Shown here in pieces: positions 3,299-57,972 of a stretch of 64,000 nucleotides of DNA. Numbering within the stretch: position 1 is the first letter of the stretch; every line of letters starts with the position of its first letter. The stretch covers positions 73,966,001 through 74,030,000 of the forward strand of contig OX597830.1 in the NCBI GenBank assembly GCA_951406725.2. The letters are read 5' to 3'. The notes below the pieces were generated by a model. That model was not told the DNA's origin and did no database searches. It saw nothing but the letters and a program-made list of their open reading frames with translations. This DNA is from Octopus vulgaris (taxonomy: Eukaryota). Made by a program: the position numbers and the translations under genes.

Positions 3299-3303
<5 letters not shown>
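3181..3303 (+). mobile_element. Degraded SINE-A 5' fragment
   Basis: GTGGGTGTGTGGTAA...GAGTTCAGTCCCACTGC...AAGAAGCCGGTCG. Confidence 0.6.
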
Positions 3304-3341
<38 letters not shown>

Positions 3342-3439
3342 AATATAAATAATATATATATATAAAAATATAAATAATATATAGATATAGATATATAGAT
3401 ATATATACATATATTATATGTATATATATATATAAAATT

Positions 3440-3722
3440 TAATAAGGGTAGAAATTGATATTAATCAATTAAAACCAGTGGCCCAGCATATTAAAAAAAT
3501 CCGAAGATTAAAATATCTTTACATACAAATTTAAAGGACTGACCACTAAAAGTGGACGGCCAACATGCTAGATATAGACGTCAAATCGCTATTTTCCACA
3601 AAGAATATGTTCTCAAATCAAAACTCATCACAAAACCTAGCGAACATATTCTTTCTTGAAAATAGCAATCTGACGTCTATATCTAGCATGTTGACCGTCC
3701 ACTTTTAGTGGTCAGTCCTTTT
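3440..3722 (+). mobile_element. (TA)n-embedded fold-back element (80-bp arms), putative non-autonomous Penelope-like insert
   Basis: Arms 3533-3612 and 3642-3721 are near-perfect reverse complements. Flanked by (TA)n. Head homologous to 11200-11292 on the minus strand. Confidence 0.75.
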
Positions 3723-3725
3723 GTA

Positions 3726-3762
<37 letters not shown>

Positions 3763-4107
3763 TATTCTTCTACTCGTTTCAGTGATTTGACTGGGGCCAT
3801 ACTGGAGTACCGCCTTTTCTTTGTAAGCCTAGTACTTATTCTATCGGCCGAACCGCTAGCTTACGGGGACGTAAAAGCACCAACATCGGTTGTCAAGCAA
3901 TGGTAGGGGTTCTAACACAGACTCACAAACACACACACTCACACACACACAAGACGGGCTCCTTTCAGTTTCCGTCTACCAAGTCCACTCACAATGCTTT
4001 GGTCGGCCCGAGGCTATAGTAGAAGACATTTGCCCAAGGTGCCACACAGTGGGACTGAACACAGAACCATGTGGTTGGGAAGCAACCATCTTACCTAAAA
4101 GCCACTC
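3763..4107 (-). mobile_element. SINE-A (internally deleted)
   Basis: Reverse-complement match to the tail, core and head of 272-704. Confidence 0.85.
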
Positions 4108-4465
4108 AATATTTTTGAACTAACCGGTATATGTCGATTAGTGTTCAGTAGAGCTCTGGCACAGTTTGGGCTATCTGGTGCCATCTGCAGTCGGGGTATA
4201 TTTCCGTCGGATCTACCTCAGGAATTCCGCAGTGTTAATTGAGATAATAATAATCTCTTATGCAACGAGAAGATGGATTTGATAATAATCTTTATTTTGT
4301 ACAAGGGTCGTTTCCACCCATCCTGCTACTGTCCCTTATGGGTGGTGCTCCTTTCAACATGTGTTTCATCAGTTTTGCAATCTGAGTCTCTACGGGTACA
4401 TCTTTACATAAAGGTTTGTGTCTTGCAAAAGATCCTGAGATTTGGCTATCATGTTGCTATAAGTC

Positions 4466-10615: not shown

Positions 10616-10997
10616 GGAGGCGCAATGTTCCAGTGATTAGGGCAGTGGACTCGAGGTCGTAGGATCGCGGTTTCGATTACCAGAGCGGGTGTTGTGAGTG
10701 TTTATTGAGCGAACACATCTAAAGCTCCACGTGTCTCCAGCTGAGGGTGGTGGCGAAACCTGCTGTAACAATTTCACCACAATTTTCTCTCACTCTATCT
10801 TCCTGTTTCTGTTGTACCTTTATTTCAAAAGGGCCAGCCTTGTCACACTTTGTGTCACGCTGAATCTCCCCCGAGAACTACGTTAAGGGTTCACGTGTCT
10901 GTGGAGTGCTCAGCTACTTGCACGTTCATTTCGCGAGCAGGCTGTTCCATTGATCGGATCAACTGGAACCCTCGTCGTCGTAACCGACGGAGTGCCA
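10616..10997 (+). mobile_element. tRNA-derived SINE, family C (resembles octopus OR-type SINEs)
   Basis: GGAGGCGCAATG..CAGTG.TTAGGGCAG...GGTTTCGATT head; tail CCCTCGTCGTCGTAACCGACGGAGTGCCA; homolog at 37761-38176. Confidence 0.88.
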
Positions 10998-11172: not shown

Positions 11173-11199
11173 CATATTTATACATATGTATGTAATATA

Positions 11200-11286
11200 A
11201 TTTTTCTGAAACTTCATATTTTTCAGTATGCTAGACCACTGGTTTTAAATTGATATTAATCAAATTAATATTCAAATTTTCACACT

Positions 11287-11329
<43 letters not shown>

Positions 11330-11462
11330 TAAATATAAGGGTAGCAAAAAATTCTAGAAAAAATTCTCCGCTATCAGCGGTCTAGCGAGAAAGAAAGTAT
11401 AGTCAAAGACTATATAAAGACTAGTGAGTCGAATGTCCTATTATGGCCATTCCTTATATTGT
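11200..11462. mobile_element. Two divergent (TA)n-anchored heads of the fold-back element family
   Basis: 11200-11292 (-) matches the 3440 head (AAAACCAGTGGTCTAGCAT). 11335-11462 (+) has TAAGGGTAG...TATCAGCGGTCTAGC. Confidence 0.5.
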
Positions 11463-11549
<87 letters not shown>

Positions 11550-36189: not shown

Positions 36190-36231
<42 letters not shown>

Positions 36232-36235
<4 letters not shown>

Positions 36236-36430
36236 TATAAAATGTTTCGAAAAACATTCTATCAATGGCCAGCATATTAAAAAATACCTTTAAAGGTTAA
36301 ATTTATAAACAACTTATAAACAAGGACAAAAGAAAAAAAATTCTAATACTAAATATGCCGAAAATAGACTATTTTCGGCATATTAGGCATTAGAAAATTT
36401 TTTATTTTGCCCTTGTTTAAGTTGTTTATA
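36232..36430 (+). mobile_element. (TA)n-embedded fold-back element (~63-bp arms, 1-nt centre)
   Basis: ...AATATGCCGAAAATAG-A-CTATTTTCGGCATATT...; arms 36304-36367 / 36369-36430; head TATCAATGGCCAGCATATT. Confidence 0.75.
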
Positions 36431-40184: not shown

Positions 40185-40186
40185 AT

Positions 40187-40484
40187 ATTAAAATTATGAA
40201 TTAGGGTATCTACGAGATACCACCATGCTGAAAATAGCAGCCATGATCTGACTCTAAAACCACCATAATTGTCCATAATTGTCCATATATCAACACGAGT
40301 TGATATATGGACAATTATGGTGGTTTTAGAGTCAGATCATGGCTGCTATTTTCAGCATGGTGGTATCTCGTAGATGCCCTAATTTATAATTTTAATAATT
40401 ATTACCTTTGAAGGTTATTTTTTCCATGCTGACCACTTGATAAAATCGTTATTTAATTTTTAAAGTAACGATCTTATCCTTATT

Positions 40485-40487
<3 letters not shown>
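40187..40487 (-). mobile_element. (TA)n-embedded fold-back element, ~100-bp nearly perfect arms, 4-nt loop
   Basis: Arms 40187-40294 / 40299-40397; centre ATATCAAC-acga-GTTGATAT; homologs at 48905-49082 and 57571-57738. Confidence 0.9.
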
Positions 40488-40555
<68 letters not shown>

Positions 40556-48904: not shown

Positions 48905-48907
<3 letters not shown>

Positions 48908-49082
48908 AGTATCTACGAGATACCAGCATGCTGAAAATAGCAGCCATGATCTTACTCTAAAACTATATTCAGCATGGTGGTATCTCAATTATTACCTTTG
49001 AAGGTTATTTTTTTCCATGCTGACCACTTGATAAAATCGTTATTTTATTTTTAAATTAACGATGTTATCCTTATTTATATAA
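48905..49082 (-). mobile_element. Internally deleted copy of the 40187 fold-back element
   Basis: Close match to 40205-40260 and 40395-40487, with most of the hairpin lost. Confidence 0.85.

Positions 49083-57169: not shown

Positions 57170-57972
<803 letters not shown>

Follow-up and report, generated by a model that had tools for sequence, protein, structure and literature searches.

A shared four-helix 3′ fold of Octopus vulgaris retrozymes that holds two insertion end points, a likely scaffold for a Penelope-like reverse transcriptase

What is the structural motif that divergent inserts in (TA)n microsatellites of Octopus vulgaris have in common, and on which strand does it act? The question arises from the window, a stretch of 64,000 nt (contig OX597830.1 of assembly GCA_951406725.2, positions 73,966,001 to 74,030,000), which is rich in microsatellites and whose reading frames are repeat-derived only. 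An earlier note had read seven inserts as a succession of (TA)n, a TAAGG-like head, a small hairpin, a CA(G/A)TGG-like segment, a long-range stem and a GA(A)ATAG segment, often with a fold-back, and had proposed an undescribed ribozyme variant or an RT/endonuclease recognition structure defining a second mobile-element class. All seven inserts exist, and the listed hairpins, both conserved segments and the long-range stem are present in them (Table 1). As the analysis described below shows, the motif forms the 3′ end of retrozymes; it likely acts as an RNA scaffold, bound in trans by a Penelope-like (probably Neptune-type) RT-endonuclease that would start reverse transcription at two fixed sites.

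Table 1. Features of the window. Positions are those of the whole stretch; S1, S2 and P1-P4 are defined in the text.
Feature	Position	Strand	Remarks
(TA)n target microsatellite, left flank	3302..3434	.	
Arm 1 of two-armed family A retrozyme insertion (L001)	3433..3634	-	5′-truncated before hammerhead; ends at S1
S1: CUU + AU-rich tract directly after P4; outer (TA)n junction	3433..3446	-	putative RT start 1
P4 hairpin	3447..3476	-	inner arms 3453-3459 + 3464-3470; read earlier as the small hairpin
Conserved single-stranded joint between P1 and P4, CC(A/G)CU	3477..3481	-	CAGTGG of the earlier reading, reversed
P1 3′ arm, long-range helix	3482..3492	-	
P3 small hairpin	3498..3509	-	family A loop cUUCGg on hammerhead strand
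S2: CUU + AU-rich tract after P2, within P1 loop	3523..3536	-	putative RT start 2
P2 hairpin	3537..3561	-	
P1 5′ arm	3562..3572	-	
Conserved pyrimidine-rich segment 5′ of P1	3573..3586	-	GA(A)ATAG of the earlier reading, reversed
Arm 2, inverted copy of the 3440 insertion	3642..3725	+	ends at S2; meets (TA)n at 3724-3761
A-like fragment, roughly S2-to-S1 segment (tail) only	11190..11290	+	from alignment; no covariance-model match
Family E two-armed insertion (L135)	11330..11466		S1 arm ~11330-11417 (-), S2 arm ~11421-11466 (+)
Family C two-armed insertion (L087)	36227..36430		S1 arm 36227-36369 (-), S2 arm 36369-36430 (+)
Family B two-armed insertion (L031)	40186..40488		S2 arm 40186-40277 (-), S1 arm 40296-40488 (+)
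Family B two-armed insertion, internal deletion	48905..49079		S2 arm ~48905-48949 (-), S1 arm 48954-49079 (+)
Family D one-armed 5′-truncated copy (L115)	57571..57738	+	ends at S1

Families were named by their window copies: A (3440), B (40187 and 48905), C (36232), D (57571) and E (11335). When the window was searched with a covariance model for the motif, six of the seven inserts were recovered (E 2e-19 to 0.004); the one that was missed, the 11200 piece, could be aligned with the head of family A. Both 11-kb copies had been described as heads only, which fits the 11200 piece, whereas the copy at 11335 is two-armed, its arms abutting at S2. The inserts assigned to 40187, 48905 and 57571 are real, but these positions are their far ends, their TAAGG heads being at 40478-40485, 49069-49076 and 57728-57735. 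Fold-backs are found in the two-armed copies elsewhere in the window but not in the 57571 copy. When the genome (2.8 Gb, 227 contigs) was searched with five window inserts, each family query gave 880-1811 first-look candidates, of which 40 were scored, and the main matches had 81-98% identity. An exact pattern of the conserved motif words matched the genome 391 times and its reversed control 0 times. Because of these matches and the candidates per query, the recurrence of the motif is not due to chance. Family E words also occur in sequencing runs of four organisms, and contigs from three runs show the family E tandem junction; none of the runs listed is recorded as RNA. Viral contigs held at least 120 stretches that fit a loose pattern, and among the 80 listed none scored with the motif model. 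Different families may lie in one (TA)n tract or in the TA tail of an earlier Penelope-like element (PLE) and so form clusters, as in the window at 11190-11466 and in the flanks of L108, L111 and L112. SINE-like repeats unrelated to the motif were seen at ~230-530, 3760-4110 and 10860-10990, among other positions (4, 9 and 5 marker hits).

The five followed families are short non-coding repeats with closed units of ~500 nt. The tandem periods were 523 and 535 nt in family A, 477 and 478 nt in C, 482 nt in D, and 470 and 469 nt in E; family B has tandems at three loci (L200, L206, L210), and its unit is of the retrozyme type by homology. All five families contain a canonical type I hammerhead, which has the core, stems I-II, a stem III that is palindromic and a UH site; it lies on the strand opposite to the layout read earlier, 286-328 nt upstream of the motif end. 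Of 149 distinct copies with the full motif, 23 include it, most of the copies being cut short before reaching it. The sole hammerhead match on the strand of the earlier note belongs to a family A copy nearby. Since the elements consist of non-coding tandem units with one type I hammerhead, they are classified as non-LTR retrozymes, with putative self-cleavage and circular RNA. Their insertion anatomy is of the Penelope type, and the motif is not the mark of a second class of mobile element. In families B and D (L039, L126), the hammerhead has an additional unpaired A, placed between stem II and GAAA; in some copies, a CUGAC/GUCAG complementarity may permit an alternative fold.

As in the parts compared of the descriptions of metazoan non-LTR retrozymes (PMC7229834; bioRxiv 10.64898/2026.07.22.740005), the units are non-coding, low in GC and arranged in tandem with one type I hammerhead each, and they coexist with PLEs, of which metazoan retrozymes were proposed to be non-autonomous derivatives. 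The octopus elements differ from those parts of the descriptions in their longer units (469-535 nt versus 150-450 bp), in that scattered 3′ fragments or head-to-head fold-backs in (TA)n make up most of the copies, and in the shared 3′ fold and the two-site end rule. The motif elements lack an ORF with RT and GIY-YIG, which separates them from autonomous PLEs, and a tblastn search of 691 kb of loci with two PLE proteins revealed no RT/EN frame that is continuous with a copy of the motif. The possibility that two copies of family B, spaced by 3.2 kb on contig C8, belong to a full-length element was rejected, as tblastn revealed no PLE frame there.

On the hammerhead strand, the motif runs 5′ to 3′ from a pyrimidine-rich segment through the 5′ arm of helix P1, hairpin P2, a CU(U/A) followed by an AU-rich tract (S2), hairpin P3, a U-rich linker and the 3′ arm of P1 to CC(A/G)CU, hairpin P4 and a second CU(U/A) with an AU-rich tract (S1), of which the TAAGG head is the reverse complement. 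This four-helix 3′ structure holds two alike modules, each composed of a hairpin, CU(U/A) and an AU-rich tract. The identity between lineage groups drops to about 26-55% (cluster representatives). In a sequence-only alignment of 16 representative rows, 95.8% of the P1 cells were paired, compared with 24-43% in slid controls; P1 is 8-13 bp long. Two-sided changes were found at six of nine P1 pairs in this alignment, although a one-pair register shift accounts for two of the six, a shuffle control reached six such pairs in 45 of 500 trials, and the families stem from few lineages and therefore provide few covariation events. The covariation claimed for the long-range stem is seen in its inner pairs and in family E, whereas the stems quoted for it share an invariant AGCAT/ATGCT core. 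P2-P4 vary in sequence and length with pairing kept across lineages, and the small hairpin described as changing in sequence while staying paired, P4, behaves as stated. Pairing of the two conserved unpaired segments with each other in a pseudoknot was judged by eye and discarded, as it is not kept across families. Lineages are undersampled in these comparisons, the RNA model having been applied to chosen loci rather than the whole genome. Two divergent lineages turned up unselected. One (L060:432-1024, minus strand) is a retrozyme tandem of ~450 nt that carries a hammerhead of its own and is laid out alike at the 3′ end; the other (L064:2504-2788) has a longer, bulged and rewritten P1 and a fold-back that ends at S1 and S2.

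Which strand carries the functional fold was judged from wobble pairs. With a strand-symmetric helix rule applied to script-picked helices of ten lineages, the internal non-Watson-Crick positions on the hammerhead strand were 13 G·T, 2 A·C and 9 others (p 0.007, an optimistic value because the lineages are related and four of the ten are single copies). In the control for this count, single-copy decay was balanced (36 vs 30). A previous G·U count of 32 vs 2 was set aside, since the rule used to pick helices was biased toward G·U. Folding z-scores do not choose between the strands, since B, B2 and D fold better on the strand of the earlier note. Because G·U wobbles prevail 13:2 on the hammerhead strand and the hammerhead lies on the same strand, we assign the predicted function to this strand; the motif as first described is real but was read on the opposite one. 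The same asymmetry bears on a further reading, that the structure acts as DNA, either as a recognition site or as a single-stranded hairpin for an endonuclease or transposase. The equivalent Penelope tail was reported (PMC11167929) to be needed by the endonuclease for recognising DNA, which speaks for such a role, but G·U-type asymmetry on one strand, the cUUCGg loop of family A, and variable 5′ truncation combined with a fixed 3′ end make it extremely improbable.

The multi-helix fold with conserved unpaired joints would also suit an undescribed self-cleaving ribozyme, a hammerhead variant or a split-core form on either strand. UUGAUAA, which resembles a U3-A8 core, follows P1 in 28/29 copies of B, 7/8 of B2 and 17/25 of D; it is found, however, in 0/34 copies of A, 0/14 of E and 2/17 of C. 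CUGANGA occurs in one of 149 copies on the hammerhead strand and in three of 149 on the other. The GAAA half on which the likeness to a hammerhead had been based is not conserved before stem III, family A having GATA in 26/34 and GATAC in 2/34 copies. Compared with the hammerhead ribozyme, as far as the consulted part of PMC4209133 describes it, the motif shares a multi-helix layout and, in some families only, GAAA-like letters on the strand of the earlier reading; it differs in having no conserved CUGANGA/GAAA core and in that these letters lie on the antisense strand. The suggested comparison with Rfam gave no gathering-level match in the window and only microsatellite noise (E up to 1) in six loci, where true hammerheads were missed as well, so that it is a weak test. 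With no hammerhead core conserved in the motif on either strand, and a canonical hammerhead already present upstream in the elements, it is very improbable that the motif is a ribozyme.

The insertion ends revealed a different property of the fold. S1 and S2 are spaced by 89-100 nt, and insertions join (TA)n at either module. L191, the same insertion as L190, was left out of the counts. After removal of two duplicates (L154, equal to L147; L097, equal to L096), 113 insertions were classified, in a sample biased toward S1 because its five queries contained S1, as S1+S2 (49), S1 with a 5′-truncated end (50), S1 with another end (10), S1+S1 (1) and other (3). Two-armed insertions thus had S1+S2 in 49 of 61 cases, and S1+S1 only once, in a borderline case (L145) whose second arm stops within P4 and has no TA. 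(TA)4 was found within 30 nt of 94 of the 111 S1 ends and 39 of the 50 S2 ends. A sample independent of S1 was obtained from family B by selection on sequence upstream of S2; its 29 insertions, seven of which overlap the first set, comprised 12 S1-only, 7 S2-only, 9 S1+S2 and 1 S2+other, with neither S1+S1 nor S2+S2, and S1+S2 accounted for nine of its ten two-armed copies. Two-armed copies nearly always take one end point per arm. Fixed 3′ ends, an optional tail, variable 5′ truncation and an inverted copy together make up a PLE-type insertion anatomy, and the S1-to-S2 segment represents the Penelope 'tail'. Of the earlier proposals, that of an RT/endonuclease recognition structure is supported as a probable role, insertion ends mapping to two fixed modules of the fold.

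Two-armed copies could also arise on the same element and strand if cDNA primed at S1 folded on itself and was copied, S2 being mostly the point where copying stops and the other target end is joined. Self-priming has been proposed for Penelope inverted repeats (PMC3846280, in the part consulted). The S2 arm was nested within the S1 arm in 32 of 48 simple fold-backs and level with it in 7, as a self-copying model would predict (39/48), and the arms of one insertion diverge less from each other than do arms taken from different insertions (0.043 vs 0.062; 34/43), which is also in its favour. In the remaining fold-backs, however, the S2 arm was longer than the S1 arm (6) or abutted it (3), and it therefore cannot be a copy of the S1 arm in these 9/48 cases. 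Moreover, S2-only copies make up 7/19 of the single-armed copies, and one design is common to both sites. Copying of a folded-back cDNA is thus quite unlikely to be the general route.

Under the preferred reading, priming at two sites, the enzyme would nick both (TA)n strands, and each target 3′ end would anneal to an AU-rich tract. One RT would prime at S1 and the other at S2, with helix P1 holding the two hairpin modules at its two ends. Joining of the two cDNAs at their truncated ends would give a fold-back, while a single priming event would give a simple 5′-truncated copy; overlapping arms would require that the RNA is multimeric or circular, or that one source supplies two RNAs. Some of these steps have counterparts in Poseidon, the green anole PLE with pLTR and tail (PMC11167929). 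In vitro, its protein cuts both strands of an AT-rich DNA and extends them, and reverse transcription starts at two internal sites of a stem-loop that lies downstream of the hammerhead. A dimer is predicted for the protein, and the genomic tail is the segment between the two starts. The octopus elements agree with Poseidon in the two internal starts within a stem-loop downstream of a hammerhead, in the AT-rich target and in the tail as the segment between starts. They differ in the length of the tail (89-100 nt vs 30-40 nt), in the nesting of the second start in the loop of a long-range helix, in the lack of an ORF, and in having AU-rich rather than AC-rich starts.

The fold may instead be kept for the stability or processing of circular RNA or for transcription, the end points being simply unpaired AU tracts that anneal to (TA)n. 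This would agree with the prediction that retrozyme circles are highly self-paired (PMC7229834, in the part consulted), with the retrotransposition of the sampled autonomous elements without P1, and with the spread of the junctions, mostly over ~8-28 nt after the hairpins (S1 in C and D left out). Against it, the many other AU-rich tracts are seldom used, another 3′ end being found in 12 of 113 insertions; a hairpin with CU(U/A) recurs at both sites in the examined lineages, including the unselected divergent L064; and the pairing of S1 with S2 requires coordination. We regard this explanation as unlikely, and a role of the fold in RT docking and priming, with putative binding and priming, as likely.

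To find a possible partner enzyme, the genome was searched for GIY-YIG domains. The best 150 of 6136 candidates were scored, and among them were many copies of a 781-codon frame with RT and, at its C terminus, GIY-YIG. These frames carry a CxxxxCxxC linker, as described for Neptune and Nematis (PMC8557442, in the part consulted). The autonomous elements sit in (TA)n and end there after a minimal U3-A8 hammerhead, a variant described in PMC4209133 (in the part consulted). Like the retrozymes, the Neptune-type PLEs have two ends, which are 38 nt apart, and the tail is present at 5 of 21 distinct loci. This tail, with CCCACU, a hairpin and a CUUAUUAUA end, resembles the P1-P4 joint, P4 and S1 without P1, and shares the order CCAC-hairpin-CUUAU. 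A covariance model search of 34 PLE loci found no full motif at PLE ends, the best matches being neighbouring retrozyme copies; several Neptune-type families taken from the top GIY-YIG matches were rejected as motif-bearing partners, their own ends being without the motif. The Neptune tail is without P1 and the sampled PLE ends are without the full motif, and we therefore regard a Neptune-type enzyme as a candidate partner.

Several observations on these PLEs are recorded here in their own right. A young autonomous Neptune-type PLE (L107:2745-5090, plus strand; also L108 and L111) has many intact 781-codon frames and the 38-nt tail, as well as a second frame further upstream, of 359 codons in L107; near its 3′ end lies a minimal U3-A8 hammerhead. 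In the 3′ non-coding region of this PLE, the GIY-YIG stop is followed at L063, L065 and L068 by a variable repeat array with TGACGTC and ATTGG words, which resemble the promoter boxes CRE and CCAAT. At L109 (C14:47993000-48000500), another autonomous PLE family occurs as a fold-back with the tail on one arm only, the same asymmetry of arms as in the retrozymes. The GIY-YIG exon at L074 (C30:5221180) is unlike the PLE type and presumably belongs to a host SLX1-like gene.

Neptune and Naiad PLEs, in the consulted parts of their descriptions (PMC8557442; PMC3846280), share with the octopus retrozymes the (TA)n targets, an inverted 5′-truncated copy, partial tandems and a tail that is often at one end only. 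In contrast to them, the elements here are non-autonomous and have a canonical-core hammerhead, whereas Naiads are without a hammerhead (PMC8557442, in the part consulted), and the rule of one tail per insertion has been counted here and tied to a conserved fold.

The element class, the tail and the inverted copies are known in print; the shared fold holding both sites and the counted S1+S2 rule appear to be new. No account of either was found in the literature searched, a scope that leaves supplements, Dfam and Repbase aside. For the start-site choice and inverted insertions of Penelope-like RTs, the retrozymes reveal the RNA features that have been retained at the starts. Their families are small, abundant and diverged, and provide a defined 150-nt substrate with natural compensatory variants, while the counted rule of one arm per site offers a testable prediction for PLE priming.

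Penelope-like RTs are the closest relatives of telomerase RT, and telomerase RNA presents a bounded template. Likewise, the four-helix element might, as a tentative extension that we hold to be possible rather than probable, serve a dimer of Penelope RT as its dedicated template scaffold, with P1 as a ruler that offers each subunit one AU-rich alignment tract bounded by a hairpin. If true, such a scaffold would account for the PLE tail and for head-to-head inverted insertions, and the 150-nt motif would be a portable cis-element for PLE-based insertion into (TA)n.
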